This document shows positions 5,553 to 29,381 of a stretch of 64,000 nt of DNA, piece after piece (position 1 is the first letter of the stretch; each line of letters starts with the position of its first letter). The stretch comes from Alphaproteobacteria bacterium (lineage in GTDB: Bacteria > Pseudomonadota > Alphaproteobacteria > UBA828). Where the stretch lies: contig OY763937.1 of NCBI GenBank assembly GCA_963667705.1, forward strand, positions 1,354,948 through 1,418,947, in the 5' to 3' direction. Position numbers and translations under genes: made by a program. The notes under the pieces are model-generated. The model was not told where the DNA came from. It did not search any database and saw only the letters and a list, made by a program, of their open reading frames with translations.

Positions 5553-5941
5553 GGAATGAGGTCCCTTTGCAGAATTTGGCGTCGTCAAGGTCGCACGCTG
5601 GTCGATCCGGACCGGATCAGAGGCGGTCGACGCGTTCAGCCGACCGTACGGGAGTGGGATTCAAAGGATTGGCGTCAGGCTGTCAATGGCGTTGACCACG
5701 CGCTGTGGTGCATCGGCGGAGAGCCGGTCGGCGCTCATCTTGCACGCCGATGGATCTCAGGCAGTGGGATTCGGGTCGTCGATGATCGCCGGCACGCGGC
5801 TGCGTCTTGCGGCCTTCGGAGCGTGAATGCATCTTGCAGGATGCAGCGGAGCAACATGGGATCGGAGCAGCGGCGCGTGCACTGTTCAGTTGAACCAAGC
5901 GAATGGACTCGCGCACCGCACTCGCGGGTCCCTCGGACACG

Positions 5942-8818
5942 ATGACGCCGGACGCGTTCATCGCCAAGTGGCAGGCGTCGGAGCTGAAGGAACGGTCGGC
6001 GGCGCAAGAACACTTCATCGACCTGTGCCGCTTGCTTGGCGAGCCGACGCCGGCAGAAGCCGATCCGGCAGGCGAGCGGTACTGCTTCGAGCGCGGCGCG
6101 CGGAAGGATACCGGCGGCGATGGCTGGGCGGACGTGTGGAAGCGCGGCTGCTTCGCCTGGGAGTATAAAAGCCCCCGCGCTGACCTCGACGCAGCGTTCA
6201 ACCAGTTGCGTCAATACGCGCTTGCCCTTGAGAACCCGCCGCTGCTGATCGTCTCGGACATGGCGCGGTACCGCATCCGCACCAACTGGACGAACAGCGT
6301 GAGTGCGACGCATGAGTTCACTCTCGAAGATCTCGCGGATGGATCGATCCGCGACACGCTCAAATGGGCGATGTCGAACCCGGAGCGCCTGCGTCCGGGC
6401 GAGACGCGGCAGGCAGTGACGGAACGCGCGGCGGCGACCTTCGCCGAGCTTGCCCAAGGCTTGCGGGACCGGGGCCACGATGCGCAGACGGTGGCGCATT
6501 TCGTCAACCGCCTGGTGTTCTGCATGTTTGCCGAAGACGTGGGCCTGCTGCCCAACGATATGTTCACCCGGATGCTGGAACGCACGCGCCGCGACCCTGA
6601 CAGGTTCGTGGATTACGCGTCGCGGCTGTTCGGCGCGATGGCCACGGGCGGCGATGTGGGGTTCGAGCCGGTGGCATGGTTCAACGGCGGGCTGTTCGAC
6701 GACGACGCGGCCTTGCCGCTCGACCTGGAGGGGATCGAGACGGCGCTCAAGGCGGCGGCGCTCGACTGGTCGGAGATCGACCCGTCGATCCTGGGGACGC
6801 TGTTCGAGCGCGGCCTCGACCCGGACAAGCGCTCGCAGCTCGGGGCGCACTACACCGACCGGGACAAGATCATGCGGATCGTCGAGCCGGTGATCGTCCG
6901 TCCGCTGCTCGCGGAGTGGGAGATGGCGAAGGCCGGGATCGCGGCCACGGTGGAGCGCGCCGACGCGGCGGGCTCGCCGGCCGCGCGGACACGACTGCGA
7001 CGGCAGGCTGAACGGGCGCTGCGTACCTTTCTGGAACGGCTGCGGACGTTCACCGTGCTTGATCCTGCCTGCGGGTCGGGCAACTTCCTCTATCTCGCGC
7101 TGCAGGCGCTCAAGGACATCGAGCACCGGGTCCAGCTTGAAACGGAGATGATGGGCCTTGCGCGCGGGTTTCCGGCAGTCGGCCCGGCAAACGTGAGGGG
7201 CATCGAGATCAACGCCTACGCTGCTGAGCTCGCCCGCGTGTCGGTGTGGATCGGCGAAATCCAGTGGATGCGTCGCAACGGGTTTAGCAACTCGGCCGAT
7301 CCGATTCTCGATTCGCTCGATACCATCGAATGCCGCGACGCTATCCTCGCGCCGGACGGAAGCGAACCCGACTGGCCGGAGGCCGACACCGTGATCGGCA
7401 ACCCGCCGTTTCTCGGCGGAAAGCTGCTTATCGGCGGGCTGGGGGAGGATTACGTCGGCCGGATGTTTGCGGCGTGGAAGGGTCGCGTACCTCGCGAGGC
7501 CGATCTCGTCTGCTACTGGTTCGTGAAGGCGGGCGAGCAAATCGCATCAGGCAAGGCAACGCGCGCCGGCCTCGTCGCCACGAACTCAATACGCGGGGGC
7601 GCGAACCGCCGGGCCCTGCAGGCCGCGATCGATGGGCGCCCGATTTTCAATGCCTGGTCAGACGAGCCGTGGGTTATCGACGGTGCGGCAGTGCGGGTAT
7701 CGCTGGTCAGCTTCTCCGGCGCAGGAGATGCGTGCAGGCCTGAGAACCATCTGAACGGGAAGCCGGTGGACGAAATCCATTCTGACCTCACGGCCAGGCG
7801 CGGCGGTTTCGGGATCGATCTGACCGGAGCGAGGCGCATCCCCACGAACTTCGAGATTGCCTTCATGGGCGATACCAAAAGCGGCGCATTTGACGTTCCG
7901 GGCTATCTGGCCCGCGAATGGCTCCGCCTAGCGGCCAATCCGAACGGGCGGCCCAATGCCGACGTTGTCAAACCCTGGTTCAACGGCATGGATCTCACCC
8001 GCCGCCCGGCGGGCAAGTGGATCGTAGATTTCGGGTGGCAGATGACGGAAGCGGACGCCGCGCTTTATGAAGCGCCCTTCGAGTACGTTAAGGAACACGT
8101 GTGGCCGAAGCGGCGGAAGAACAGGGCTGCGTCAGTCAGAAGACTTTGGTGGCGGCACGAGCGTCCGCGTCCGGATATGTGGAAGGCGCTCGATAGCCTG
8201 ACTCGGTTCATCGCGACGCCCACAGTCGCCAAACACCGGTTGTTCGTCTGGCTCGATGCGGGCGTTTGTCCCGACCACCAGCTGATTGTCATCGCCCGCG
8301 ACGACGACGTAAGCTTCGGCATCCTGCACAGCCGGTTTCACGAGGCATGGTCGCTGCGGCTCGGGACTAGCCTGGAGGACAGGCCGCGATACACCCCGAC
8401 CACCACCTTCGAGACCTTTCCCTTCCCTGTCGGCCTCACGCCCGACATCCCCGCCGCGGACTACGCCGAAGATCCGCGCGCCATAGCCATCGCTGACGCC
8501 GCGCGGCGGCTGGCAGACTTGCGCGACCGCTGGCTCAACCCGCCCGAATGGGTGGAGTGGATGGATGAGCCGGTGCCGGGCTATCCGAAGCGTCCGGCCG
8601 CCCGCGACGAGGAGTCGGCGAGACACCTCAAGACGCGCACGTTGACCAACCTATATAACGCACGGCCACAATGGCTCGACGATGCCCACCAAGAGCTCGA
8701 TGCTGCCGTGGCGGCAGCCTACGGGTGGGATGCGGGGATTCCCGAGGAGGACGTGTTGGTTGAGTTGTCAGAACGCAATTTCGCCGCAAATGCTAAAGGA
8801 CACCTGAGGACATCGTGA
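5942..8818 (+). CDS. MmeI-family Type IIL/IIG restriction-modification fusion enzyme (N-terminal PD-ExK endonuclease + N6-adenine methyltransferase + TRD)
   Basis: The N-terminus aligns to the MmeI nuclease domain (EHFIDLCRLLGEP; D-x9-E-Y-K in GWADVWKRGCFAWEYKS; PPLLIVSDMARYRIRTN). Methyltransferase motif I is VLDPACGSGNFL and motif IV is NPPF (VIGNPPFLGGK). About 960-970 aa, comparable to MmeI (919 aa). The start could also be the ATG at 5903. Confidence 0.8.
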   Translation: MTPDAFIAKWQASELKERSAAQEHFIDLCRLLGEPTPAEADPAGERYCFERGARKDTGGDGWADVWKRGCFAWEYKSPRADLDAAFNQLRQYALALENPPLLIVSDMARYRIRTNWTNSVSATHEFTLEDLADGSIRDTLKWAMSNPERLRPGETRQAVTERAAATFAELAQGLRDRGHDAQTVAHFVNRLVFCMFAEDVGLLPNDMFTRMLERTRRDPDRFVDYASRLFGAMATGGDVGFEPVAWFNGGLFDDDAALPLDLEGIETALKAAALDWSEIDPSILGTLFERGLDPDKRSQLGAHYTDRDKIMRIVEPVIVRPLLAEWEMAKAGIAATVERADAAGSPAARTRLRRQAERALRTFLERLRTFTVLDPACGSGNFLYLALQALKDIEHRVQLETEMMGLARGFPAVGPANVRGIEINAYAAELARVSVWIGEIQWMRRNGFSNSADPILDSLDTIECRDAILAPDGSEPDWPEADTVIGNPPFLGGKLLIGGLGEDYVGRMFAAWKGRVPREADLVCYWFVKAGEQIASGKATRAGLVATNSIRGGANRRALQAAIDGRPIFNAWSDEPWVIDGAAVRVSLVSFSGAGDACRPENHLNGKPVDEIHSDLTARRGGFGIDLTGARRIPTNFEIAFMGDTKSGAFDVPGYLAREWLRLAANPNGRPNADVVKPWFNGMDLTRRPAGKWIVDFGWQMTEADAALYEAPFEYVKEHVWPKRRKNRAASVRRLWWRHERPRPDMWKALDSLTRFIATPTVAKHRLFVWLDAGVCPDHQLIVIARDDDVSFGILHSRFHEAWSLRLGTSLEDRPRYTPTTTFETFPFPVGLTPDIPAADYAEDPRAIAIADAARRLADLRDRWLNPPEWVEWMDEPVPGYPKRPAARDEESARHLKTRTLTNLYNARPQWLDDAHQELDAAVAAAYGWDAGIPEEDVLVELSERNFAANAKGHLRTS

Positions 8819-8825
8819 GCAGGCC

Positions 8826-9506
8826 ATGAACGCGAAACTGCTGGCCATGAACCTTATTCGGCATATCGGGGACCGAGTGTCGGAATTGGGGCAACCAATC
8901 GAACAGTTTTCTGGTTTTAGCGCACAAATCGATGCCCCCAGCGAAGAGATCGCGTATAACCTCCTAGAAGAACTACAAGAACGAAAACTCGTTATATTTA
9001 GCAGAGTCATAAGGGCATTTGAAGGCACTACGTTCACGAACGTCAATCTAAGCTTGGACGGCTGGGAGGAGTACGATAGGGAAAAGCTCGGTGCATTCGA
9101 TGGCAACTACGGGTTTATCGCCATGAAATTCGGCGATGAGCAGCTTGATATATTCGTTCGCGATGTGGTGAAACCAGCTATTCGAGAGCAGTTGGGAATT
9201 GATCTTGTAGACTTGCGCGATGTGGAGCAAGCAGGAGTTATCGACGACATCATGCGCGTAAAGATCAGAGACTCGAAGTTCGTTATCTCTGACCTCACTC
9301 ACGACAATCATGGAGCCTATTGGGAAGCGGGATACGCAGAAGGTTTGGGAAAGCCGGTGGTGTACATCTGCGACAGGGAGAAGTTCGAGAAAGTTGGCAC
9401 TCATTTTGATGTCAACCACTGCACAACTATCGCGTGGTCTACTGAGGACAGTGATGGATTTTGCTCCAGGTTGATCGCAACACTGCGTCGATCCTTGGAT
9501 CTGTAA
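8826..9506 (+). CDS. Nucleoside 2-deoxyribosyltransferase-like (PF05014/SLOG-fold) protein with about 100-aa N-terminal extension
   Basis: GFIAMKFGD and DLTHDNHGAYWEAGYAEGLGKPVVYIC match the NDT signature (YLAGPFF...DSGTAFELGYAYALGKPV), including the catalytic Glu. GC is about 47%. The gene starts 8 bp after the MmeI-like stop. Confidence 0.6.
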   Translation: MNAKLLAMNLIRHIGDRVSELGQPIEQFSGFSAQIDAPSEEIAYNLLEELQERKLVIFSRVIRAFEGTTFTNVNLSLDGWEEYDREKLGAFDGNYGFIAMKFGDEQLDIFVRDVVKPAIREQLGIDLVDLRDVEQAGVIDDIMRVKIRDSKFVISDLTHDNHGAYWEAGYAEGLGKPVVYICDREKFEKVGTHFDVNHCTTIAWSTEDSDGFCSRLIATLRRSLDL

Positions 9507-9770
9507 CCTAATGCCCTTGGCAATTCGGTGCAAGCACCCTCGATTCCACAAGCGCCGATTCACACTGGCTATCTTGACACTGCTGTGTCCCACTCTGAAC
9601 GTTGCCTGTTGGCGGCAGCTACCGACAAAAAACTTCACCTCCAAAATATCCGACGGTGTCCTTGCCACTGGAATTCCCGCGATCATGACAGCCATGCCGA
9701 GATCTCCCTCGTCTCACCATCGTCTCAAGGGCGGATGCGGCATGTACCCTTCCCGCTCAGGAACCCTGCA

Positions 9771-10664
9771 ATGGCTCTATACAAGTACGTGACTTTCAAA
9801 AACGCGATGCATGTTCTGGAGGGAACCATCCGGTTCACACAGCCAGGCGCCTTTAACGATCCATTCGAGATGGTTCCCGAACTTCATGTTCCCGAAGGCT
9901 TTGGCGGCGACAGAGAGATCAATATGTCATTCTCCGTTACTGCGCCGAGACGAGTAACGAGGGATTACGAATTGGCGCCCGACTTCGAGTCAGACCATTG
10001 CAGCGACAGCAATTCTCGCTCAATACGTTCATCACTCGATCAGACCATCGGTATTCTGTGCTTGTCGAAGAATCCTGCCTCACTGTTGATGTGGTCGTAC
10101 TACGCAGATCAGTACGCAGGAGCTGTTGTAGAATTCGATGACTCACACGACTTTTTTCGTGGTAGCTTTCCGATTGAGTACAGAGAGCATCGCCCGAAGT
10201 TGGACGTTAGCTACTATGAGTCCAACAATGAGCCTATTCCCGTCGCTGAACTTTGCGTAAAGCCAAAGGAATGGGAACACGAAAGAGAAGTCAGGGTAGC
10301 TCGAAGCCTGTCGGACTGCCAGCTAGTACAGGACACAAGTGCTGACGGATATCCGGTTTATGTAATGTCCATCCCTGTCGAGTGCGTCAAGGCAGTCACT
10401 ATGGGAGAACGCATGCCTGTTGAACATCAGCGTCACATTTGGGAAATGGTCAAAGACCGCAATCTCTCCCTTCATCTGGACGCGATATCCAACTGGGGCT
10501 ACGATCTCAGAAGAGATACTATCAAGCTACCAGGAATGAAGAGCCCTATTATCAGCCCTAGAACTGCACACATCTTCGTCCAGGACTCTGGACCAACAGG
10601 GGATATCGCTCGATGGCAACTCAAGTCCAATAAGTTAGCTCAATTTGTGAACGATACCCTATAG
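9771..10664 (+). CDS. DUF2971-family protein
   Basis: Begins MALYKYVTF...FTQPGAFNDPFE, which is the DUF2971 N-terminal signature (LYKY...FNDPFE). Low GC. An in-frame upstream extension to 9528 is judged non-coding. Confidence 0.65.
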   Translation: MALYKYVTFKNAMHVLEGTIRFTQPGAFNDPFEMVPELHVPEGFGGDREINMSFSVTAPRRVTRDYELAPDFESDHCSDSNSRSIRSSLDQTIGILCLSKNPASLLMWSYYADQYAGAVVEFDDSHDFFRGSFPIEYREHRPKLDVSYYESNNEPIPVAELCVKPKEWEHEREVRVARSLSDCQLVQDTSADGYPVYVMSIPVECVKAVTMGERMPVEHQRHIWEMVKDRNLSLHLDAISNWGYDLRRDTIKLPGMKSPIISPRTAHIFVQDSGPTGDIARWQLKSNKLAQFVNDTL

Positions 10665-11142
10665 ACTCTGGATACGATGAGATTGCTTTCATCGATTGCT
10701 TGTGTAGAGGCTCCAACCAACTCGCGAGCGACGTCATCTCGCCCAGGACGCTTTTGTAATTCGGGGATGTGCAGTAGGGGTTCGATCGATAGTAGCGATT
10801 GGTCGCTCTCCAATGAACATTGAGCGCTTCGTCGTTGGGTTCGCTGGATGGCTCTGGCGCGAGTTCTCAGCTCCAGCGTTTCGTGAGCTGGTCTAAGATG
10901 CTTATGCTTGGCGTACCAGAGTGGATTGAACCCCCAACTCCCAAAGGGACGAGGAAGTCTAGCTTGCTCTGAAAGCTCTCGGTCAACGGCGTCGGCCTCT
11001 CTTCTTGAGTGCTCACAAGACTATCAGGAGCAGGCGGCCTCCACACCATGTGGTGTGTTGCACGGGCTTTTATCCAGCGTACGATGGGCATTGATCGAGA
11101 ACACGGTCATGACCGTGCGAACCCATGGCGCGGGTGATCTGG

Positions 11143-12042
11143 CTATTTCGATAATTTAGCGTAGTACTGTACACCGAGGACATTCGCTATCTCTTGCAGC
11201 TCCTTGGGAAATACCCCGCCTACCGCCAGCAGACAATCTGCAACTGGAATTATGCGGTCATGAACCTGTTGAGCGCGCAAGACAGCCTTATATTTGACAC
11301 ACTGAAAGATGCCACGATGGAGTTCGTCGAATCCAGCGCTCGCAGTCTTCACTTCGACAGCAACCGCCTCCCTTTGAAAGTACACGTCTACTCTGTCGCC
11401 CGACCATAACGTGAACTCCTGAATGCCGCTATCGTCGGTCTTCAAGCCGACTACTGTCGGATTATTCGCAACTTGTTCTTTGAGCCTTTTGTGCGCGTTG
11501 CTTTCTGAGCCACTACTCCATCCGCCAGGATTAGGATGACGACGCTTCGATCTGGAACGCTTCCGCGAGCGCTTCGTTTCTTTGAGCCCGCACGCCCTAA
11601 GAACATCTCCCCACGACGGAAAGTCAAATATCTCGGTATGTGCCCGATCTATGATCGCTCGTTTTTTCCGGTCGGATAGTTTGGTTGGATCGACGTTACG
11701 ATCCAAGTAATCCTTACAAAAGCGCCTAATGTACTCGTTCGCGCCTTTTCCTGGCAAGTTGAGTTTTTCGTTTACCACCAAGAGATTGATTGGAGGTACC
11801 TTAGTACCGGTTTGATCCGCATAGTCCTTGCATGCATCGCCAATGGCTCCAGCGGGTCTACCATAAAGAACGGACATAACGTGTTGTCCCAAGCCTCTCT
11901 TCACAATTTCTTTATCCCAGCCACTATAAGTGATCGTCTGGCGTTTTCTGGCATATTCAACAAGAATGGGAAAACCAATTCGTGCCGTGCGTTTAGTCCA
12001 CGAGTTTCCTTCTAGTCTCCTAACTTTCATTTGATTTCCCAT
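11143..12042 (-). CDS. Hypothetical protein with C-terminal PD-(D/E)xK-like nuclease-fold motif and basic S/R/K-rich linker
   Basis: 299-aa ORF in the low-GC region. GDRVDVYFQ...AVAVEVK fits a D...(D/E)xK pattern. The linker KETKRSRKRSRSKRRHP separates two domains. No family recognised. Confidence 0.5.
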   Translation of the reverse strand: MGNQMKVRRLEGNSWTKRTARIGFPILVEYARKRQTITYSGWDKEIVKRGLGQHVMSVLYGRPAGAIGDACKDYADQTGTKVPPINLLVVNEKLNLPGKGANEYIRRFCKDYLDRNVDPTKLSDRKKRAIIDRAHTEIFDFPSWGDVLRACGLKETKRSRKRSRSKRRHPNPGGWSSGSESNAHKRLKEQVANNPTVVGLKTDDSGIQEFTLWSGDRVDVYFQREAVAVEVKTASAGFDELHRGIFQCVKYKAVLRAQQVHDRIIPVADCLLAVGGVFPKELQEIANVLGVQYYAKLSK

Positions 12043-12219
12043 GGTTTGTCTCTTGCAAGCTAAGTCTGAAGAGTGTTGGGCAGTTTAGACGTCGGCGGGG
12101 CTGAACCCAGCTCGCTGAGGTCAATCCGTGCTTCACATTCGCGATCGGGTCCAGTTAGTTGGCGCGCAGTGTACTACGTATGAGCTCGTTTGACGTACAA
12201 GACAAATGCCAACACGGGC

Positions 12220-12648
12220 TTACTCAAGACTCCGGGCTTGCACGGATTGAAAGCGTGCGAAGTCCCGATCATTGGTGAGAATCGTGTCGATGCCGTGCTC
12301 GCCGCAGAGCGCAGCAATCTGCGCGTCGAACATCAGGTTTCCGTGCGCATTACCTTGGAGGGCTGCTGCGATGAAATGGTCGAGAAACTCAGGGCCGGGC
12401 CGAACAAGCTCGCAACTCGGGGCGGCAACGATTCCCTGGATGAAGGCGGTGGCCTGGGCCACGGTGGACGGTGGATTGAACACACGCCGGTGCGTGACGA
12501 CCCGCATGAACTCGGTAACGCAGAAGATGGGAAGAGCCCACCGCTCCACGCCTTGAGCTAGCGCGGTGATCCGCGATGCTGCCGGGCCATGCAGCTCGGT
12601 TTCGCCGCGATGGGAGTAGATCAGGATGTTGGTGTCTACGGCGATCAC
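12220..12648 (-). CDS. vapC: PIN-domain toxin VapC
   Basis: MIAVDTNILIY... PIN motif with acidic residues (D5, E, D). 4-bp overlap with the upstream antitoxin gene. Confidence 0.85.
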   Translation of the reverse strand: MIAVDTNILIYSHRGETELHGPAASRITALAQGVERWALPIFCVTEFMRVVTHRRVFNPPSTVAQATAFIQGIVAAPSCELVRPGPEFLDHFIAAALQGNAHGNLMFDAQIAALCGEHGIDTILTNDRDFARFQSVQARSLE

Positions 12649-12881
12649 GCGCGGTCGATTACCTCGTATAGCGCGTCGCGGTCGGCGATGTCGACGTTGG
12701 GCGGTGATGTTCCGATGACCGTCTCAAGCCGCAATCGGAAACCGCGCTTTCTGCGGCGTGCATCCGAGAGCCGCGCGCGCAAGGCGTCCTCGACAAATCT
12801 GGTCAGCGTGATCCCTTCGCGCGCCGCCCGTCCCTTTGCCTGGCGCAGCACTTGATCGTTGAGATTGAGTGTGGTCTTCAT
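12645..12881 (-). CDS. vapB: VapB-type antitoxin (RHH/CopG-like)
   Basis: MKTTLNLNDQVLRQAKGRAAREGITLTRFVEDALR is typical of an RHH antitoxin. The stop overlaps the vapC start. Confidence 0.7.
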   Translation of the reverse strand: MKTTLNLNDQVLRQAKGRAAREGITLTRFVEDALRARLSDARRRKRGFRLRLETVIGTSPPNVDIADRDALYEVIDRA

Positions 12882-13994
12882 GCCAGCGTTGCCTAGTTGG
12901 AGAGCGTATGGCTGAACCATATCATGGGCGACGGAGCAAGGGAACGACTCATGGCTCGAGCCTGGTCGCCCGGAGACGTCTGCACGACGGCAGCGAGCGA
13001 TGTTCGTGTACTAAGGCCTTGGCGTTGAACTGGGAATCGTATGGGAATCAGCCGAATTCTACTTCCAGGGCGCTCAAGACCGCTCGTGACCTGATCGGCG
13101 TCCGAGCAACGGTGGACGGTGAAGAGACGGTGCCGCGCATGATCCGAGTCTGCAATCCCGGCCCAGCTTCGGCTGGAGCAAATTGTGGAGCCGCAAGAAC
13201 AGGTTATGGCACCCGAATTGCCGGATCGCGTCGAGTTTCTGGAGGGCCAACGCTTAGGCCGGCGCGGTTCACGCAGACCTGACCTTCAGATGGAACACCT
13301 GAAGTTATCTTCATTATGCGGTGAGAGCGCGACGAGACGGCGGTGGACGGGGCGACGCTGACGCTCATCTTCGACGGAGCGCTGGACAAGGCGTCGGTGC
13401 CGGCCGCGGTGCGCTTCGCAGTGGTGGGGACGAGGTCGGGGAGCCGAATTGCCTCCACCCGGTCTCCTCCGGCAACATCGAGACAGGTGCTCAACCGCTC
13501 GCTCGAGACCGTCCTTTGTGGCTCGCGGAGGATCTCATCCGTGTAGGAGATCGTCTCGATGCCTGTTGCCCGATCCACCATGTTTGCCTCGTAAACCCCG
13601 GACCCGCCTCTGCCACCCGGTATGCGCCCGGGGTCTCGCTCCTTTGAGCCCGATCCGGCCACGCCGGCTCTTGCGCGGCGGCGTTCCGCCTCCCGCGGAA
13701 GCCCCGTCGCAAGATCGCTCTGCGGGCCCTCTCTGCGTCTTCCTCTACTTTGCGGAAATCCGGCTCAAGCTTCTTCAGCCGGTCCACCAGATCGCCGAGG
13801 AGAACATTTCGCAAGATCAGTGGACAGGAGAGGTCTAGAGAGGACTGGAGGGACTGATAGTTTCTATTTCAATGTGTTACAGAATTGAGCAAATGGCTTG
13901 GCGTCCCCTGAGACCTTCTGAGCACCCGCTGGGTTGATTTCTCGTGTTGGCTAGAGTGGTGACATAGTCCGAACCAATCTCATGGATCCCGCCC

Positions 13995-15329
13995 ATGAAA
14001 CCTCCATCCGCCAAACGCGTCGCCCGCGTCAAGCTCACACTGACCAAGCGCGCCGTCCAGGCCATGACCCCCGGCGACAAACCGTGGATCGCATGGGACG
14101 ACAAGCTCACCGGATTCGGCGTCCAGGTTCACCCCAAAGGTGCCAAGTCGTTCCTCGTCAATTACCGCACCGGCGGCGGCGGTAGGAAGGCGCCCAACAA
14201 GCGCGTCGTCCTCGGCCGTTTCGGCAGGCTCTCGGTCGCCGAGGCCCGGAGAATGGCACACCAGGCCCTCGGCAAGGCCGCCGGCGGCGACGATCCGGCA
14301 GTGAAGCGCGCCACTGCGCGCGTCATGCCCCTGCTGGAGGCCATGCCCCTGCTCGAGCAGGCCTTCGAGGACTACATGAAAGTCAACCCCAAGCGGGCCG
14401 AGAGAACGAACAGGATGTACCGCGCCGAGTTCGCGAACTGCCTCGGCGACTGGCGCAGCCGTCCCCTTGATTCAATCCAGTGGCGCGACGTGGAGGAGCG
14501 TTTCTTCCGCCTCACCCGCGACCACGGCTGGGCCGGGGCCAACCGCGCGATCGCCCTGCTGCGCTCGGTCTACCGCCGGCCCTGCGTCGACATCGAGGGC
14601 CTGCATAATCCGGTCGATCTGTGGCTCGCCGGCGGCGGCGAGTACCATCGCCCGAGGCGGCGCAAGATCTCGAACCCGGCCGAGGTGCTGCCGCTCTGGC
14701 GGGCCGGGATCGAGGCCGTGGTGGTCACTCCCGCGTCGCGCGACGCCTTCTTCTTCGGGCTCTACACCGGCATGCGCGTCCAGGAGGTGCTGCCGCTGCG
14801 CTGGGAGCGCATCGACATGGAGGGCCTTTCCTTCCGGGTCGACGAGACCAAGACGGGCGAGCCGCTGGAGCTTCCCGTCACACGCCAACTGGCCACCCTC
14901 CTCGCCCGCCGCCGGGCGGAGAGCGAGGAGCTGCGCGGCAATCTTCGGGACTGGGTGTTCCCGTCCACCGTGAGCGGCTCCGGCCACGTCGCCAACCTGA
15001 GCCATCTCTATGCCAGGATCGGCGCGGCCGGCGGTGCGAAGTTCTGGTACCACGGCCTGCGCAACGCCTTCATCACCGTGGCCGAGCGCGACCTTCTGCT
15101 GCCGCGCACCCTGACCAAGCGTCTGGTCAACCACGCCCGGCCGGGCGACGTCATCGAGGGCTACGCCGCCGACTGGACCGTCGGGCAACTGCGGCGTCCC
15201 GCGCAACTGATCGCCGACCGCATCGAGGCGCTGATGAACAGCAGCACGCCGGACCAGGCCACTACGACGGCGGCCGCAACAGCCCCCGCCGACGCCGATG
15301 CCGTGGTGCGCACGGAGGCGACATCGTGA
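13995..15329 (+). CDS. Tyrosine-type site-specific integrase (DUF4102/P4-like N-terminal arm-binding domain)
   Basis: The N-terminus (LTKRAVQAMTPGDKPWIAWDDKLTGFGVQVHPKGAKSFLVNYR) is the DUF4102 integrase signature. The C-terminal catalytic region has WYHGLRN...GY. Confidence 0.85.
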   Translation: MKPPSAKRVARVKLTLTKRAVQAMTPGDKPWIAWDDKLTGFGVQVHPKGAKSFLVNYRTGGGGRKAPNKRVVLGRFGRLSVAEARRMAHQALGKAAGGDDPAVKRATARVMPLLEAMPLLEQAFEDYMKVNPKRAERTNRMYRAEFANCLGDWRSRPLDSIQWRDVEERFFRLTRDHGWAGANRAIALLRSVYRRPCVDIEGLHNPVDLWLAGGGEYHRPRRRKISNPAEVLPLWRAGIEAVVVTPASRDAFFFGLYTGMRVQEVLPLRWERIDMEGLSFRVDETKTGEPLELPVTRQLATLLARRRAESEELRGNLRDWVFPSTVSGSGHVANLSHLYARIGAAGGAKFWYHGLRNAFITVAERDLLLPRTLTKRLVNHARPGDVIEGYAADWTVGQLRRPAQLIADRIEALMNSSTPDQATTTAAATAPADADAVVRTEATS

Positions 15330-16570
15330 GCGCGCCCTCCGGCAAGCGCGTTGCGCTGAACAGGCTGACCCTGACGGTCCGCAGCGTGGACGCGCTCAAG
15401 CCGACAGAGCGGTCCTGGATCGCCTGGGACGACAGGCTGACCGGGTTCGGCGTGCGCGTGCAGCCGACCGGCCTCAAGTCCTTCGTCGTCAACTACCGTG
15501 CCGGCGACGGCGGGCGCAAGGCGCCCAACAGGCGCGTGGTGTTGGGCCGCCGCTGCGATATGTCGGTGACGGAGGCGCGGCGGAAGGCGCGGCGGATGCT
15601 GGCTGCGGTGGCCCGTGGCGAGGACCCGGCGGGCGGGCGCAGGCAGCAGCGCGCCATGCCCGTGCTGGAACGGGCCTTCGAGGACTTCATGAGCGTCAAT
15701 CCCGGGCGGGCCGCGGTCACCGAGAGGCTCTACCGCGAGGAGTTCGCCCGCCACTTCGCCGATTGGCGCGAGCGTCCCCTCGACGACATCGCGCGGCGCG
15801 ACGTGGAAGCCCTGTTCGTCCGGCTGACGGAAGACAGCGGCTGGTCGCCGGCCAACAGGGCGGTCTCGCTGTTGCGCTCGATCTATCGCAGGCCGTGCGT
15901 CGATTTCAAGGACCTGCGCAACCCGGTCGACCTATGGCTCGCGGGCGGCGGCAGGTATCACCGAAACAGGCGGCGCAGGATCTCCACCCCGGCGGAGGTC
16001 CTGCCGCGCTGGAAGAAGGGCATCGAGGACTCGGTGGGCACGCCGTGTGTGCGCGATGCCTTCTGGTTCGGCCTCTACACCGGCATGCGGCTGCGCGAGG
16101 TGCTGGCCCTGCGCTGGCGAAGCGTGGATCTGGCGGCGCTGGTCTTCCGGGTCGACAAGACCAAAGCGGGCACGCCTCTCGAACTGCCGGTCACCCGGCA
16201 ACTGGCAGCGATCCTCGAACGACGCCTCGCCGACGGTCCCGGCGAGTGGGTGTTCCCGTCGACCCTGCCCGGCGCGCTCGATCACATCGCGGACCTGTCG
16301 CAATACTACAAGCGCATCGGCGAGGCGGGCGGCGCGCGCTTCTGGTACAACGGCCTGCGCAACGTCTTCTTCACCGTGGCAGAGCGCGACCTGCTGCTGT
16401 CTCAGCCGCTGACCAAGCGGCTGGTGAACCACGCCCCGGCCTCCGACGTCACCGAGGGCTATGCGGCGGACTGGACCATCGAGCAGTTGCGCGAGCCGGC
16501 GCAGCGAATCGCGGATCGCATCGAGGCGCTGATGACGGGCGAGGGCGAGACCAGCGCCGGGCCCGCGTAG
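15326..16570 (+). CDS. Tyrosine-type site-specific integrase, paralog of the preceding gene
   Basis: GTG start overlaps the previous stop (GTGA). Same domain order and about 60% identity to the upstream integrase (LTVRSVDALKPTERSWIAWDDRLTGFGVRVQPTGLKSFVVNYR). Confidence 0.85.
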   Translation: MSAPSGKRVALNRLTLTVRSVDALKPTERSWIAWDDRLTGFGVRVQPTGLKSFVVNYRAGDGGRKAPNRRVVLGRRCDMSVTEARRKARRMLAAVARGEDPAGGRRQQRAMPVLERAFEDFMSVNPGRAAVTERLYREEFARHFADWRERPLDDIARRDVEALFVRLTEDSGWSPANRAVSLLRSIYRRPCVDFKDLRNPVDLWLAGGGRYHRNRRRRISTPAEVLPRWKKGIEDSVGTPCVRDAFWFGLYTGMRLREVLALRWRSVDLAALVFRVDKTKAGTPLELPVTRQLAAILERRLADGPGEWVFPSTLPGALDHIADLSQYYKRIGEAGGARFWYNGLRNVFFTVAERDLLLSQPLTKRLVNHAPASDVTEGYAADWTIEQLREPAQRIADRIEALMTGEGETSAGPA

Positions 16571-16699
16571 CTCGTTCGCTCTCTGGCCGGCCCCGCCCGG
16601 ACCGCAACCCCTTTTCCGCCTTCACGGCTCCAATAGGCCGTCGCCCACTCGTTCCGCGCCGCCCCGATCTTGCCACCCCGCCGGCGCCCGTGCACCGGC

Positions 16700-17200
16700 G
16701 AGAGATCCTATGAGGGCGACGCGGAGACCCGGCGCTGAAACTCCGGAATCTCCATCGGGTCCGCGCGTCCGTGAGCCCGGCGGCCTTGCGCACCTGCCAC
16801 CAGGGTTTCTGCAAGCCCTGCAAACAGGCACCTTCCTCGGTGCCGACGATTAGATAGGGGTTACCCTCGACCCGCTTGGCATTCGCCAGGACCTCGTGAT
16901 CCGGCCGTTCAGCGGGATCGTCTTGGCTCCAATTTTGGAATCCGGCAGATGAATTCGGTTACCACGGATATGCTCCCACTTCAGCGTCTGGATCTCCGAC
17001 AGGCGCACGCCGGCGTAGAGCAGCAGCTGGTACGCCGTCACCGCTGCAGGCGCGAACGCCTCCTCCTCATCTAAGGCCTCCCCCAGAGGTGTGAGTTCTT
17101 CCGCCGTCAGGAACCGCTCGCGCTTGCCCTCCAGGTACTTGCGGACGCGGTAGCACGGGTCTGAGCAATCGGGTCGTAGACTCTATACCTCAGTAAGCGA
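16700..17200 (-). pseudogene. Tyrosine integrase remnant (frameshifted, C-terminal catalytic region only)
   Basis: The minus strand translates to ...AVTAYQLLLYAGVRLSEIQTLKWEHIRGNRIHLPDSKIGAKTIPLN. After a frameshift it continues ...NPYLIVGTEEGACLQGLQKPWWQVRKAAGLTDAR. The integrase catalytic core is split over two frames. Confidence 0.5.
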
Positions 17201-17431
17201 GAACATCTTACTCACGATCACCCCGCAGCAGGGACGAGAAATGCCGTCTTAAACAAGGCCCATGCTTGAGCAGCACAGGCGCACGAAAGCCCCCAACATC
17301 GCCGCAACGGGTTCGGTCGATTGCGGACGGGAGGAAGGGGTTACCGGTGCGAGGCGCCTGCGTCGCGTCATTGACTCTCCGATGCCCGACTGACAACATG
17401 CCGTCATATTTCTTCGAAAAATGACGGCAGC

Positions 17432-18592
17432 ATGGCAGAAAAGACCTATCCGCGGCTGATCCGGCCGCCCGGGCAGAGCTTCTTTCTCCTCGGTGTCCGC
17501 GGTGTTGGCAAGAGCACCTGGGCGCGAACGCAGTTCCCCGATGCGCCGCACATCGACCTCCTCGACGAGGCGCGCTACCAGGACTACCTCGCCGATCCGT
17601 CCCTCTTCGCTGCGGATCTCCAGACCGTGCCGCCGGACAGTTGGGTGGTCGTCGACGAGATCCAGCGCCTTCCCAATCTCCTCAACGAAGTGCACCGGCA
17701 CATCGAGGAGCGGCGTCTCAACTTCGCCCTGCTCGGATCGAGCGCGCGAAAGCTCAAGGCGGCGGGCGTCAACCTGCTCGCCGGCCGGGCGCTGCACAAG
17801 ACCATGCATCCGCTGACCCCGGCCGAGCTCGGCGGCGACTTCGACCTCGAAGCCGTCCTCGCTTCTGGAACCATTCCCTTGGTCTGGGTCGCCGAGGAAC
17901 GGCGAGCGGTGCTCGACAGCTATGTCAGACTCTATCTCCGAGAGGAGGTTCGGGCGGAGGGGTTGGTTCGCAACCTCCCCGGCTTCGCGCGCTTCCTGCC
18001 GGTCGCCGCCCTCTACCACGGCCAAGTCGTCAACATATCCAGCATCGCGCGCGACTGCGGCGTCGCCCGCACCACCGTGCAAGGCTATCTGGACATTCTT
18101 GAGGACACCCTGCTTACGTTCCGCCTCCCTGCCTTCCAGCCGCGGCTGCGGGTGCGGGAGCGACGCCATCCGAAACTCTACTGGGTGGATCCCGGCCTGG
18201 TCCGTGCAGTGAAAAAGCTTCACGGACCGATCGCGCCCGAGGAACGTGGCGCGCTCCTGGAAGGCTGGGTCCTGCATCTTCTGCGGGCGCATGCAGAGGA
18301 GGGTGAACTGTTCGACGAGCTGCACTACTGGGCGCCGCACCCGGCGAACCGCACTGAGGTCGATTTCCTGCTGCGCCGGGGTAGAGAACTGGCGGCGATC
18401 GAGGTCAAGTCACAGCCGCGTTACCACACCGGCATGCTGCCGGGGCTGCGCGCAATCGCAGAGCTACCGGGTATCGCGCGACGCATCCTGGTCTACGGCG
18501 GCAAGCGGTCCTTCCAGACCGGGGACGGGATCGACGTGTGGCCCATCGATCGGCTGCAACAGGCACTCGCTGAGAGCACCCTGTGGCCCTAG
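17432..18592 (+). CDS. AAA+ ATPase, COG1373/DUF4143 family (ATP-binding protein)
   Basis: Walker A (LLGVRGVGKST) is followed by VVVDEIQRLPNLLNEV and the C-terminal DUF4143-like region. Confidence 0.8.
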   Translation: MAEKTYPRLIRPPGQSFFLLGVRGVGKSTWARTQFPDAPHIDLLDEARYQDYLADPSLFAADLQTVPPDSWVVVDEIQRLPNLLNEVHRHIEERRLNFALLGSSARKLKAAGVNLLAGRALHKTMHPLTPAELGGDFDLEAVLASGTIPLVWVAEERRAVLDSYVRLYLREEVRAEGLVRNLPGFARFLPVAALYHGQVVNISSIARDCGVARTTVQGYLDILEDTLLTFRLPAFQPRLRVRERRHPKLYWVDPGLVRAVKKLHGPIAPEERGALLEGWVLHLLRAHAEEGELFDELHYWAPHPANRTEVDFLLRRGRELAAIEVKSQPRYHTGMLPGLRAIAELPGIARRILVYGGKRSFQTGDGIDVWPIDRLQQALAESTLWP

Positions 18593-18797
18593 CTGCCCTC
18601 GCAGCTCACTTGGCTCAACACAGGCAATCTCGGAGTACGACCCTCCACCTGGGACCTGTGTCGCCTGGCTACCGGGCGATTCGCTAACGCCTCAAGCTTA
18701 TGGAGAATATGTGGCAGGTCTTCGGCGTAGTGATTGATCGCGTCAGCCGCCCGGCATTCCTCAATTCCTTGACCGATTACAAGGCCTGCAGTCCGCT

Positions 18798-19172
18798 TCA
18801 TCGCGAGGGCGCGAGGTCGTACTCTCGCACGAGCACGTCGGCCGGGAGCTTCCATTCCGCAGACAGAGCCCGGATCATCGGCAGGGTCAGCGGCCGGCGG
18901 CGACTTAGCACTTCCGAGGCATGCGGCTGCGACCCGATCACGGCGGCGAGGTCCTTCTGGCGATAGCCGCGTACTTCCATCGCATGTTCGATCATTGCGA
19001 CAGGATCCGGCGCTTCCACCGGCCAGCGACCCTCCTCGTAGGCCTCGACAAGGGTGACGAGAATCTCAAGCCAATCCCCTTCCGGGGTGTCCGGGGCTGC
19101 GCCCATAAGGCTCTCGATCGTCTCCAGCGCCGCATCGTAATCGGCCTCGCACCTGATTGGCCTTATGTTCAT
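18798..19172 (-). CDS. higA: HigA-family antitoxin (HTH, XRE-like)
   Basis: MNIRPIRCEADYDAALETIESLM...YRQKDLAAVIGSQPHASEVLSRRRPLTLPMIRALS matches HigA. GGAGGAGG Shine-Dalgarno lies 6 nt upstream of the ATG at 19172. Confidence 0.75.
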   Translation of the reverse strand: MNIRPIRCEADYDAALETIESLMGAAPDTPEGDWLEILVTLVEAYEEGRWPVEAPDPVAMIEHAMEVRGYRQKDLAAVIGSQPHASEVLSRRRPLTLPMIRALSAEWKLPADVLVREYDLAPSR

Positions 19173-19500
19173 GAGCGACCTCCTCCACCGTCGACGCATT
19201 GATCCGATCGTACTCGCCATGGCTTCCGACGAAGTGTCAATCGGCATTCAGAATATTGCCTGTTGTCCCCTCCACCGTGGAGTAGGCCCTTGGGGTCGGA
19301 CAGTACGACGCGGACGCGTTCCCGAGGAGACCGGGTGGAGCCGTTTCGACTCAGCGGGTGATCGCGCCAAGCGACGACACCGATAGTCACGTCGAGGAAG
19401 CGCTCGCGCCGCAGGAATGCCGACAACGGCAGGCCCAAGTCCATGCCCCCGCAATGCAGGGCGCAGTGTTCGCCGTCCGGACGTCGCAGTCCCTCGGCAC
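19169..19500 (-). pseudogene. higB: HigB/RelE-family toxin, degraded (frameshifts)
   Basis: Two reading frames carry consecutive HigB-like pieces: GIPAARA...KRLHPVSSG in one, LLHGGGDNRQYSECRLTLRRKPWRVRSDQ in the other (compare GNRKGFWSVWVNGNWRVIFRF). The frame junction lies in a G-run. The end overlaps the higA start by 4 nt. Confidence 0.4.
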
Positions 19501-19975
19501 GGGCGGCGCTCTCGTTCTGCAGTTCGATGGCGGAGAAGGTCTCCCAGAAGCGGGCGGCGGCGCGGACGAGCACGGTCTCAGCTCAGGGGGGGGGGTGACA
19601 GTTACCCCCAGGATTGCCCTGCGCTGCTCGCATTTCTGCATACGGCACGGGCATGTATCTGGCCTCAATAGGCATTTTCATTCTCGGCAGCGGGCTGCTA
19701 TCCGGGTTGGTCGAGAGACTGACAAAGGGCGGTCGAGCAGCCGATGAACGGGTTATGGCCAGGAGCCGTTTGGCGCCGTCGCCCGGCCGGGCTGACTGCG
19801 CGCTCAGCAGTTGTCGGGGAAAGTGGCCGATGATCATCGTGAGCGTCCGGTTCGAGCCAAGGCGGTTCCACCGCTCGTCACCGCCAGAGGGGCGATTGGG
19901 CTCGGTCTTCCACTCCCTGCGCGCTTCGACATCCCCGGTCCCCTTCCGCGCTTCGGAGCAACAGCGGTGAGGAAG

Positions 19976-20230
19976 ATGGACACTCGGGACGAAATTCAGG
20001 CTGCGCTTGACGCCGTCCTGCCCGAGTTCGTGAAACCCTGCGAGGCGGCCGCCATCCTGCGCGTGAGCACGAAGTCCCTCGAGCGCTACCGGACACATGG
20101 GGGCGGGCCCGCCCACTACATGTTCGGCATTTCCATCGTCTACGCCCTGGCCGACCTCGCCGATTGGGCGGCTGCGCAACGCTATCTCCACACCGGCCAG
20201 TTCCATACCCGCCAGCCGGGCACGCTCTGA
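19976..20230 (+). CDS. Excisionase/AlpA-like HTH (HTH_17) small DNA-binding protein
   Basis: ILRVSTKSLERYRTHGGGPAHYMFGISIVYALADLADWA matches the Xis/MerR-like HTH_17 pattern. GGTGAGGAAG Shine-Dalgarno lies upstream of the ATG. Confidence 0.6.
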   Translation: MDTRDEIQAALDAVLPEFVKPCEAAAILRVSTKSLERYRTHGGGPAHYMFGISIVYALADLADWAAAQRYLHTGQFHTRQPGTL

Positions 20231-20383
20231 TCGGGGTGATGTCGTGTCGGGATCGGTGCCGCCGGGGCAGCTGACGGTTTCGCGTGAATTCCGAATGTCC
20301 GCGCGTCCGAACCGACGCCGGCCCGGGCGCTCCCGCTGCACCGGCCGGCACGCCTGCCCGATCCACCGGTGGAGACCGGGCAG

Positions 20384-21061
20384 ATGAACATGATCGAAGC
20401 CGAGTTCCTGGACGCCATCTCGGCCTGGCTCACGCGCTCCGCAGTGGGCGACAGGAGGCTCGGCGAGCTCGCGCTCGACGATCCTGAGTTCGTCCCCGAC
20501 CTGAATGATGGTGCTTCGCCGGGTCTCGACGCGGTCGACCAAGTGCTCCGCTTCATGGACATTGCCCCCATCGGTCCGAGGTTCCGGCGGGAGGTCGAGG
20601 CATTCCTCATCGTCACCAGGACCGAGCCCGCCCTGCTCGGGACCAGAGCGATCGGAAAATCCTCGTTCGTGGGGGAGCTCCGAAGCGGAGCGTCGCCGAC
20701 GCTCGACAGCGTCGCTCGGGTGAGGTCCTGGATGCACGGCGCTGCCGATGATTTCCATCGCACCGGTATCGCGTGGCTGCTCGCAAGTGATGTCACGGTC
20801 CCGCCCTACGGGCTTGGCGCAGCGTTCCCGCCGTGGACCGATGACGACGAGCAGATCCCGAAGATTGATGAGGGGACCTTTCTCACCCCGCGCGAAGCGG
20901 CGAACGTCGTCGGGCTCTCACCCGCAGCGCTCCAGAGCTACCGGATCTCCGGCGACGGACCGGCGTTCCATAAGTTCGGGCGCCGGGTGTTGTACGCGCG
21001 CTTCGATCTCGACGTGTGGGCGAAAGCGAGGTTCGGGCAAAGATTGCTCAGCGCCGTCTGA
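20384..21061 (+). CDS. Hypothetical protein with duplicated N-terminal module and C-terminal excisionase-like HTH
   Basis: Two related about 50-aa modules (PEFVPDLNDGASPGLDAVDQVLRFMD and SSFVGELRSGASPTLDSVARVRSWMH). C-terminal LTPREAANVVGLSPAALQSYRISGDGPAFHKFGRRVLYARFDLDVWA. Confidence 0.6.
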   Translation: MNMIEAEFLDAISAWLTRSAVGDRRLGELALDDPEFVPDLNDGASPGLDAVDQVLRFMDIAPIGPRFRREVEAFLIVTRTEPALLGTRAIGKSSFVGELRSGASPTLDSVARVRSWMHGAADDFHRTGIAWLLASDVTVPPYGLGAAFPPWTDDDEQIPKIDEGTFLTPREAANVVGLSPAALQSYRISGDGPAFHKFGRRVLYARFDLDVWAKARFGQRLLSAV

Positions 21062-21234
21062 CAGCGCATGGCCCCGGTTCATACGCGCATCGAAAGCTGC
21101 CGTGATGAATGCGGACCCCACATCCCGGCCCTGTCCCGGTGCAGCCCGTGCCAGCGCAAACGGCGACGCACGGGTCTCTCAGTCCCCGCCAGCTATCGGC
21201 GCGAGCGGCTGAATCACAACCGGGGTGTGTTCCC

Positions 21235-22116
21235 ATGGCGACGCTAGACGATCTCATCCGACAGGCCGTTCAGTCGCATCTCTCGCGCTCGAAAATGAGC
21301 GAATGGAAACTGAGCGCGTTCGCGGTCGGCGATCCCTCGATCGTTCCGCGTCTCATGGCTGGCGGCTCGATGAGGCTCGACAAGGCCGACCAGTTGCTCT
21401 GCTACATGAACCAGGCGCCCATTGGTCCCGGCTTCGTCACCGAGGTCGAGGCGTTCCTCTCCGACACCGGAATCGAGCACCGCGAATTCGGGTCCATGGC
21501 CGCGGGACAACCCACGTTCGTGACGAAGCTCAGGAGCGGAGCGTCGCCGCGACTTTCCACCGTCGAGCAGGTGCAGGCCTGGATGTGCACCAACAGGAGC
21601 GTGTTCGAGCGCGGGCCTGTCGCACAGGAGCAAGGCGACGGCAGGAAGCCATCGCCTGCCCCCTCCTCCGGCACGGACGAGCACGGAACGCCAGCTGATG
21701 CGCCGGCCGACTCGCCTCCGTCCGACGACGTGCGCCCCCGCGGGACAACGGTTTACACGAAGGACGGTCCCAAGGTGATCCTTACCATCCGCGAGGCCGC
21801 GGCCCTGCTCACACTTTCACCTCGCACGCTGACGCGATATCGGGAGAAAGGTGGAGGCCCTCGCTATCTCGAGATCGCGGGGATGATCCGGTATGCGCGC
21901 GCCGACCTGCTGGAATGGGCGCATGACGGACAGGCGGGCGGGCCGACGCATTCGGAAGCGGCCCGCCCGCCGCCGACGGCGTCCGCGACGGTGTCGCCAC
22001 GGGACAGGAGACGACGCGGGCGCCGAAGGATGGGACTCAATCTTCCGCGCCCTCCCCGGCGTCATCGGTCGCGGTCCGCCGTGCGCCGCTCATCGTGCCT
22101 GCCGTCACACCTGTGA
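21235..22116 (+). CDS. Paralog of the preceding gene (duplicated N-terminal module + excisionase-like HTH); C-terminal extent uncertain
   Basis: SIVPRLMAGGSMRLDKADQLLCYMNQAPIGPGFVTEVEAFL and QPTFVTKLRSGASPRLSTVEQVQAWM mirror the 20384 gene. HTH is LTIREAAALLTLSPRTLTRYREKGGGPRYLEIAGMIRYARADLLEWA. The Arg-rich tail after the HTH may be out-of-frame noise. Confidence 0.55.
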   Translation: MATLDDLIRQAVQSHLSRSKMSEWKLSAFAVGDPSIVPRLMAGGSMRLDKADQLLCYMNQAPIGPGFVTEVEAFLSDTGIEHREFGSMAAGQPTFVTKLRSGASPRLSTVEQVQAWMCTNRSVFERGPVAQEQGDGRKPSPAPSSGTDEHGTPADAPADSPPSDDVRPRGTTVYTKDGPKVILTIREAAALLTLSPRTLTRYREKGGGPRYLEIAGMIRYARADLLEWAHDGQAGGPTHSEAARPPPTASATVSPRDRRRRGRRRMGLNLPRPPRRHRSRSAVRRSSCLPSHL

Positions 22117-29108: not shown

Positions 29109-29381
29109 ATGGAAGACCTGAAGGTGCGCAAGCTCCGTGAGAAGCTGGGAATCTCCGCCGAGGACCAGAGGGCAGCAGAAGGTAAGGCAATCAGCCCGAA
29201 TCTGCGGCAGAAGATCCCGGGCCATCCGGAGACAGGCGGCAATTTCGTCTCGGCGCCGTCCGCGGTGGCGGCAGGCCATCCGGGGACAGGCGGCAATTTC
29301 GTCTCGGCGCCGTCCGTGGTGGCGGCAGGCCATCCGGGATCAGGCGGCAATTTCGTCTCCGCGCCGTCCGTGACCGATTAG
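29109..29381 (+). CDS. Candidate RiPP precursor peptide: leader + 3 tandem 18-aa Cys-free Gly-rich core repeats
   Basis: GAGGTG Shine-Dalgarno before the ATG. Leader MEDLKVRKLREKLGISAEDQRAAEGKAISPNLRQKIP, then GHPETGGNFVSAPSAVAA / GHPGTGGNFVSAPSVVAA / GHPGSGGNFVSAPSVTD. It sits directly upstream of a radical SAM/SPASM gene. Confidence 0.6.
   Translation: MEDLKVRKLREKLGISAEDQRAAEGKAISPNLRQKIPGHPETGGNFVSAPSAVAAGHPGTGGNFVSAPSVVAAGHPGSGGNFVSAPSVTD
29220..29381 (+). repeat. 3 x 54-bp near-perfect tandem direct repeats (coding the core repeats of the precursor)
   Basis: ggccatccgg[a/g]gacaggcggcaatttcgtctcggcgccgtccg[c/t]ggtggcggca repeated with 2-4 mismatches. The third copy ends at the stop codon. 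Confidence 0.85.

Follow-up and report, generated by a model that had tools for sequence, protein, structure and literature searches.

Why would a small integrative island carry three consecutive genes for excisionase-like proteins, two of which begin with a duplicated module that no database names? The question is raised by 64,000 nt of contig OY763937.1 of an Alphaproteobacteria bacterium (hereafter the window). The open reading frames (ORFs), which we call g1, g2 and g3, lie in tandem on the + strand where an earlier note, made from the sequence alone, had placed them, and the products of all three score above the gathering cut-off of the HTH_17 family. The answer that we favour, with a probability of roughly 0.55, is that g1 is a plain excision factor, and that g2 and g3 combine Cro-like domains with a domain of the RdfS type in composite regulators, coupling promoter control to the architecture of the attachment (att) sites. 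The features of the three genes are given below, where HTH is helix-turn-helix, HMM is hidden Markov model, AF2 is AlphaFold2 and L085 is a related locus from another metagenome.

19976-20230, + strand: g1, 84 aa; single-domain RdfS-like winged HTH, candidate excision factor.
20384-21061, + strand: g2 (subfamily A), 225 aa; predicted Cro-like module A, Cro-like module B, linker and RdfS-like winged HTH.
20393-20557, + strand: g2 module A, residues 4-58, by self-alignment and hhalign; AF2 helices 3-19, 23-31, 36-41 and 48-57.
20570-20734, + strand: g2 module B, residues 63-117, by self-alignment and hhalign; AF2 helices 64-78, 82-90, 95-100 and 107-120.
20861-21031, + strand: g2 C-terminal RdfS-type winged HTH, by HMM mapping; HTH_17 at residues 171-220.
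21235-22116, + strand: g3 (subfamily B), 293 aa as read; predicted architecture as in g2.
21235-21594, + strand: g3 double Cro-like module (predicted), by HMM mapping; self-alignment z 12.2.
21760-21927, + strand: g3 C-terminal RdfS-type winged HTH, by HMM mapping; HTH_17 37.3 bits.
21928-22116, + strand: g3 arginine-rich aberrant tail, 63 aa; identity with L085 stops at 21927.

The ORF of g2 opens at GTG 20369, and an alignment with nine related loci places the conserved ATG at 20384, with GGAGA 8-9 nt upstream of it in 9 loci. A database protein with the sequence of g2 (P0001, 225 aa) starts at the same position, and we take ATG 20384 as the most likely start. The g3 protein is identical to database protein P0109, and the homologs of g1 in the databases are 84-87 aa long. 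By sequence g2 and g3 are paralogs, as the earlier note had it: they align end to end with a score of 291 and 36% identity. Measured against orthologs from three other loci, the ratio of non-synonymous to synonymous substitution (Ka/Ks) is 0.26-0.53 for g1, g2 and g3, which means that purifying selection acts on all three.

The C-terminal domains are the easier part of the answer. Pfam HTH_17 (PF12728) matches g1 with 30.5 bits, g2 with 32.8 and g3 with 37.3, against a gathering cut-off of 27. The PHROGs assign all three proteins to phrog_66, "excisionase and transcriptional regulator" (g1 with E 4.2e-6), and the excisionase matches in NCBIfam are all sub-threshold. A profile of 62 family members matches the excision factor RdfS (PDB 8dgl) with E 2.9e-13, and g1 alone does so with E 1.9e-4. 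For the structural comparison with excisionases we use the AlphaFold model of g2, which has a mean predicted local distance difference test score (pLDDT) of 84. Its top PDB neighbour in Foldseek is again RdfS (template modelling score (TM) 0.71-0.73, root-mean-square deviation (rmsd) 1.4 Å, 42% identity), and the next neighbours are Pukovnik Xis, BldC, MerR-type heads and the GIsul2 excisionase. Compared with the C-terminal domains of g2 and g3, the domain of g1 shows 43-47% identity. On these matches we classify the C-terminal domains of g1-g3 as excisionase-type winged HTH domains with RdfS as their closest solved relative.

RdfS belongs to the Mesorhizobium element ICEMlSymR7A, where it stands at the head of the transfer genes of an integrative element and acts as excision factor and transcription regulator. 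It is reported to bind promoters as well as attP, to promote excision and to control transcription (PMC11963761). RdfS is a single domain of 89 aa with one extra helix, whereas in g2 and g3 about 120 aa of predicted tandem Cro-like domains and a linker of about 45 aa precede the winged HTH. The same contrast appears with the AlpA/Xis/HTH_17 excisionases of P4-type islands. The likeness lies in the HTH_17 match above cut-off, the adjacent Arm-DNA-bind_3 integrases and phrog_66. An island normally has one such excisionase, a single-domain protein of about 60-100 aa. The window has three in succession, of which g1 has that size (84 aa) and the other two (225 and 293 aa) have added domains.

What, then, is added in g2 and g3? 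The earlier note had described two copies of a module of about 50 aa in their N-termini. The repeat is real and its size needs correction, to about 55 aa. Self-alignment finds the internal repeat with scores of 68 (g2) and 67 (g3), against means of 22 and 21 for shuffled sequences (standard deviation about 4), that is, with z-scores of 10.8 and 12.2. The family profiles of module A and module B align over 55 columns with a probability of 99.4% and E 2.8e-21 (hhalign). The invariant positions are mainly core hydrophobics and glycines. A search with g2 finds 119 protein clusters, all unnamed, and a profile of the double module against representatives at 50% identity finds 2314 at E<=1e-3, 278 at E<=1e-10 and 81 at E<=1e-30, with many short or odd-tailed matches that resemble truncated or frameshifted gene calls. 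A low-complexity artefact with no conservation in homologs, the doubt that the note itself had raised, is ruled out by the shuffles, by the profile-profile alignment and by the conservation across the family. The module has no model in Pfam, NCBIfam or PHROG and no name in any source (PADLOC was not searched). The note could not assign it to a known domain; its wording, an unrecognised regulatory family, is fair, and by its conservation we consider the module a domain family.

The fold of the module is predicted with confidence. The N-terminal 124 residues of g2 are modelled (pLDDT 92.9, predicted TM score (pTM) 0.82) as two copies of a four-helix unit. Among the top 50 PDB neighbours of the double module in Foldseek, nearly all are HTH domains of the XRE/Cro-CI class (TM 0.6-0.73, rmsd about 2 Å, probability up to 0.95), and they include HipB, HigA, DdrO, C.AhdI, SinR, ClgR, P22 c2, the 434 repressor, and POU and CUT domains. 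The top neighbours in the viral library BFVD are mostly CI repressors and other Cro/C1- or XRE-type HTH proteins, one of them a 137-aa phage protein with a double HTH that matches across 134 columns (TM 0.69/0.64). Taken together, the matches in PDB and BFVD have TM 0.6-0.78, rmsd 1.4-2.7 Å and probability up to 0.99. At the sequence level there is a sole link, in which the family profile aligns with the HTH of HipB(Lp) gap-free and in register, with E 0.075.

Two relatives place the module where a DNA-binding domain is expected. In protein P0126 the double module stands ahead of a Peptidase_S24 domain (Pfam E 2.2e-10), where CI and LexA hold their DNA-binding domain. The gene (8001-8762 of locus L087) is found on two contigs of >1 Mb in chromosomal surroundings of metabolic genes, and its product looks like a LexA/CI-like repressor with a double-module head. 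The second relative comes from a tblastn search of the module against 72,556 plasmids, which gives one weak match; the same search against phage records finds no relative. The match is a 72-aa protein, annotated as hypothetical and consisting of one copy of the module, at 4980-5198 of the Bradyrhizobium sp. ISRA432 plasmid NZ_CP094518 (L086). On this 46.6 kb phage-like plasmid the gene is divergent from a gene for an S24-family peptidase, that is, it occupies the Cro position. Because of the predicted fold and these two contexts, we conclude that the N-terminal module is probably a divergent HTH of the Cro/CI type, and we infer that it binds DNA.

The likeness to the lambda-type Cro and CI proteins and to XRE domains (HipB, 434 repressor, P22 c2, SinR) lies in the predicted fold, in the in-register HTH alignment with HipB and in the relatives that stand in the Cro position or are fused to S24. 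The differences are several. The module has four helices, not five. A GDPxFV motif is conserved where XRE domains have the turn and the start of the recognition helix. Two copies of the module lie in one chain, in contrast to a homodimer, and there is no Pfam XRE match.

Where do such proteins occur? We surveyed one genome per species and found 99 relatives, of which 80 loci (L003-L082) were retained. All 80 come from metagenome-assembled genomes (MAGs) of at least five phyla or classes: mostly Alphaproteobacteria, and also Gammaproteobacteria, Binatia, Thermodesulfobacteriota and one acidobacterium. Often a genome has several family copies, and several genomes have 3-5. At nearly every locus a single ORF encodes both the double module and the RdfS-like domain. 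As a side observation, several MAG bins have names like those used in microbiome studies of sponges and corals; a sponge origin is not confirmed by the text of PMC8163846.

The survey of genomic context, a check that the note had proposed, yields three settings: integrative and conjugative elements (ICEs) with F-type transfer genes, integrase-bearing islands, and chromosomal sites after dnaK-dnaJ. In the ICE-type setting (about 43-50 of 86 loci) the family gene has on one side a divergent gene for a CI-like S24 repressor and on the other an F-type transfer operon: a small unknown gene comes first, then traL, E, K, B, V and C, an S26 peptidase gene and traW. Comparison of copies within genomes shows that repeated elements of >11 kb end about 1 kb away from the family gene. 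A conserved promoter-like block, TTGTCAA-N17-TAYGTT, ends 5-12 nt before the ATG in the ICE-type relatives, and palindromes such as TAGGTT..AACCTA overlap its -35 element. In the relaxed form TTRTCRA-N15-18-TWYSKT it has 39 matches in 3.2 Mb, 33 of them at the starts of ICE-type genes (e.g. L084 9909-10000, L012, L027, L046, L062). The palindrome-bearing block, present in 33 loci, implies a near-leaderless transcript and a repressor operator, as read from the sequence.

The window-type setting has one or more integrase genes, a g1-like gene, subfamily A, subfamily B and sometimes a 204-aa subfamily C (L001, L002, L083, L085), with defence or toxin-antitoxin cargo nearby. The subfamilies are mutually 36-52% identical. 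In the window the integrases int1 and int2 lie 3.4-6 kb upstream of g1-g3 on a common unit, and this order is repeated in L001, L002 and L085. The chromosomal members stand directly after dnaK, dnaJ and a Meth_synt_2-like gene (L011, L028 and L036, near position 10000), in L028 ahead of a BCCT transporter gene; Pfam annotation of these dnaK-dnaJ loci covers L028. Such copies may be domesticated.

From these pieces we propose the following scheme. The core of the island would span about 13022-21927, with two tandem P4-type integrases, an ATPase, a divergent HigA-like HTH gene and g1-g2-g3, and g1-g3 would be the DNA-binding control module of this small integrative island. The g1 protein would be a minimal recombination directionality factor of the RdfS/Xis type. 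In g2 and g3 two tandem Cro/CI-type HTH domains, probably arranged as a single-chain pseudo-dimer (a geometry suggested by the model), would be joined by a flexible linker to the RdfS-type winged HTH. The winged HTH would bind and bend att or promoter DNA, as RdfS does, and the doubled Cro-like head would bind operator DNA in the promoter region of the island, so that a single polypeptide may couple a Cro-like transcriptional switch to excision.

A dual job of this kind has precedents. P2 Cox is a dual excisionase and switch regulator. So is Apl of phage 186, which combines both functions in one protein; Apl acts in excision and on the lysis-lysogeny promoters opposite the repressor (PMC7498355). 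In the ICE-type relatives the fused protein has its place opposite a CI-like repressor. The difference is that Cox and Apl do both jobs with one small HTH domain, and here the jobs would be split over separate domains.

Several observations weigh against the proposed scheme. At the sequence level, no XRE-family model is significant on the modules, and with whole g2 and g3 Pfam gives none at E<=1. When 20 members are scanned singly, HTH_3 (0.17), CUT (0.051) and dnstrm_HI1420, an XRE-type antidote (0.04), appear in one member each. Nor does hhalign give a significant alignment of the module with the HTH at the N-terminus of 43 S24 repressors from ICEs. Structure prediction, which the earlier note had proposed as a check, delivers four-helix bundles with XRE-like neighbours and stops short of significance, the Foldseek E-values of the N-terminal domain being 0.01-3, not significant alone, and the HipB profile match being as given above. 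In the window we recognise no promoter of the sigma-70 consensus and no operator around g1-g3, we find no S24 repressor, and neither the whole window nor the ends of the common segment show convincing att direct repeats. There are three RdfS-like proteins and two integrases, and nothing allots roles among them. The native C-terminal end of g3 is lost. Finally, the chromosomal members after dnaK-dnaJ have no visible mobile element, so that the family cannot be regarded as an excision device in the strict sense.

Could the doubled modules work without binding DNA at all? They might be a scaffold for oligomerisation or protein contacts, with a role like that of the extra helix alpha-1 of RdfS, driving a filament of winged HTH domains on att DNA or docking to the integrase or the repressor. 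We hold this to be unlikely, and still the most serious of the alternatives. The extra N-terminal helix of RdfS is reported to be required for oligomerisation, excision and transfer (PMC11963761). The most conserved positions of the module are core hydrophobics and glycines, unlike the polar residues of a recognition helix, and the lack of a significant XRE sequence match fits a scaffold too. But the S24 fusion P0126 would then have no DNA-binding domain, the 72-aa protein in the Cro position consists of the module and nothing more, and the alignment with the HTH of HipB is gap-free and in register.

A second alternative assigns g2 and g3 to cross-talk. They would be paralogs of the master regulator of F-type conjugative elements from the same communities, with which an island that cannot transfer itself would sense or hijack the induction of a helper element and excise in step with it. 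The window has no type IV secretion system (T4SS) or relaxase gene, and in about half of the related loci proteins of the same family head F-type tra operons; the identity of 36-52% among subfamilies and the mobility of the unit between genomes are consistent with such an exchange as well. Against it, the window holds no helper element, its 4.15 Mb contig has no further family member on record, and window-type clusters always have their own g1 and usually their own integrases. The idea derives from context only, and we think it somewhat less probable than the scaffold.

The remaining question is whether the cluster is still in working order, and for this we turn to the island around it.

13022-13994, no strand: left-edge leader of the common segment of about 8.9 kb, non-coding; blastn identity of 93% with L085 from exactly 13022.
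13995-15329, + strand: int1, P4-type tyrosine integrase, 444 aa; Arm-DNA-bind_3 1.1e-15, Phage_integrase 2.7e-10, HGLRN box.
15326-16570, + strand: int2, tandem paralog of int1, 414 aa; GTG start overlaps the int1 stop by 4 nt (GTGA).
16850-17182, - strand: third-integrase fragment; Phage_integrase E 2.4e-4, profile positions 2-72 only (N-terminal catalytic part).
17432-18592, + strand: AAA_14/DUF4143 ATPase; DUF4143 3.3e-33, AAA_14 1.9e-15; gene also in L085.
18798-19247, - strand: HigA-like protein with weak XRE-type HTH, HTH_3 E 0.034; divergent from g1-g3.
19585-19612, no strand: hairpin G10 - TGACAGTTA - C5, at the junction where the homology of L001 and L003 with the g1-g3 module starts.
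19915-19955, + strand: pair of direct repeats, each with CGCTTCG and 27 nt apart, located 20-60 nt before g1; candidate regulatory site.

The earlier note had set the genes next to toxin-antitoxin genes and integrases, which agrees with what we find: the island bears integrases, and VapBC genes (12220-12920, - strand, upstream of the integrases) and the HigA-like gene are adjacent. The leader contains no credible gene by gene picking based on GC content at third codon positions (GC3), and it may be an attachment or arm-site region upstream of int1. The int2 protein is 64% identical to int1 across residues 4-415 (blastp). It has NGLRN in place of HGLRN, that is, the His of the HxxR box is lost; its copy in L085, 93% identical, is recorded with Arm-DNA-bind_3 and Phage_integrase. 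The third-integrase fragment overlaps a 260-bp stretch (16788-17047) that is missing in L085. The L085 ortholog of the HigA-like gene has HTH_3 with E 0.0012. The tandem integrases of L001 and L002 are only about 27% identical to int1 and int2.

Positions 1496-10692 of L085 correspond to 13022-21927 of the window, with 93-95% identity over 13022-16787 and 17048-21927. The hybrid histidine kinase gene beside the unit is 76% identical to its L085 neighbour and inverted (+ strand in the window, - strand in L001 and L085). The difference between 93-95% for the unit and 76% for the neighbouring kinase therefore points to recent mobility, and suggests recent horizontal transfer of the unit of about 8.9 kb, with the caveat that the two kinases may not be orthologs. 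The homology of L001 and L003 with the window starts only at 19606-19620 and the genes upstream of it differ, and therefore g1-g3 behave as a module. GC3 is 0.56-0.89 at about 3.6-32 kb of the window and 0.92-0.96 beyond 34 kb. A separate observation is that 3642-12920, between a sulfate permease gene and the integrases, is a low-GC block (GC 0.50-0.61, GC3 down to 0.56) whose genes are of the defence type, with GmrSD-like, MmeI-like and deoxyribosyltransferase-like genes, a DUF2971 gene and then VapBC.

The g3 protein departs from the family consensus right after ..DLLEW, and 63 arginine-rich codons then run toward the hybrid histidine kinase gene. Homologs stop 10-25 aa past the winged HTH, and no other member has such a tail. 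L085 and P0103 keep the native short C-terminus (LTK/MRRDG..; LTKRRDG), and the break in g3 is therefore a rearrangement breakpoint specific to the window. The tail looks like read-through across this breakpoint into the region upstream of the kinase gene. We had considered the break as the right end of the element, and dropped this since L085 retains the native g3 end (LTKRRDG, like P0103).

The aberrant tail of g3, the integrase fragment nearby and the loss of the His of the HxxR box in int2 are what one would expect of a decaying remnant, in which a regulator was duplicated in tandem and then drifted with no current function. The Ka/Ks values of all three genes speak against decay, as do the intact domains, the order of the A and B paralogs kept in several genomes and the identity of 93-95% with a copy in another genome, and we regard decay as improbable.

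Least probable by a wide measure is a small-molecule or signal sensor gating the excisionase domain, as the note's term "sensor-like" implied and which had nothing in its favour beyond the module having had no annotation: we reject it, as the module is predicted to fold into a compact four-helix HTH of the Cro/CI/XRE type, with about 55 aa and no cavity-forming elements or sign of a ligand pocket, the structural neighbours are DNA-binding domains, and in relatives (the S24 fusion and the Cro position) the module takes the place of such domains.

The composite regulators proposed here can be compared with the control of SXT/R391-type ICEs, which includes the repressor SetR, CroS and an F-type T4SS. 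The ICE-type relatives appear similar in their S24 repressor, divergent first gene and F-type transfer operon; the difference is that their gene in the Cro position encodes a three-domain protein. GInt elements (recombinase-in-trio) have a run of three tyrosine recombinase genes at one end (PMC5385486). The window differs, with two intact tandem integrase genes and one fragment on the opposite strand, which do not make such a trio. A literature search for fusions of XRE and excisionase domains returned nothing relevant.

How might the cluster of the window be controlled? The CGCTTCG-repeat block upstream of g1 is nearly invariant in five of the five aligned loci and is possibly a binding site or an unusual promoter. 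The HigA-like gene, 730 bp from g1 and with its weak HTH_3 match, is the only candidate in the window for a divergent gene such as the S24 gene of the ICE-type relatives. We find no terminator consensus around g1-g3 and no Rfam family in the window, and no tRNA gene in the window or in most of the related loci.

The fold class of every domain discussed here is already known, the setting in mobile-element control is conventional, and there is no new kind of system. What is new is that a conserved module without a model or a name is duplicated in tandem, fused to an excisionase domain and found consistently at the switch regions of F-type elements from uncultured bacteria. As a rule, excision and Cro-like switching are the work of different small proteins, or of one domain that does both jobs. 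If our proposal is true, the conserved three-domain fusion is a compact way of coupling the decision to activate to physical excision, and it offers a handle on how conjugative elements and islands with defence cargo are controlled in bacteria that have not been cultured. More tentatively, at well below even odds, the fused Cro-Xis proteins, each a single polypeptide that would flip a CI-like switch and also excise or transfer the element, may be the master control of undescribed F-type conjugative elements and of small hitch-hiking islands that move between phyla, in uncultured and apparently marine host-associated bacteria. A profile of the module would annotate a few thousand proteins that are currently hypothetical, and would flag mobile-element switch regions in metagenome-assembled genomes.

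One minor feature lies elsewhere in the window: at 29220-29381, upstream of a radical SAM gene of low GC3, a small ORF on the + strand contains three tandem copies of a 54-nt sequence, the second and third 96% and 76% identical to the first.

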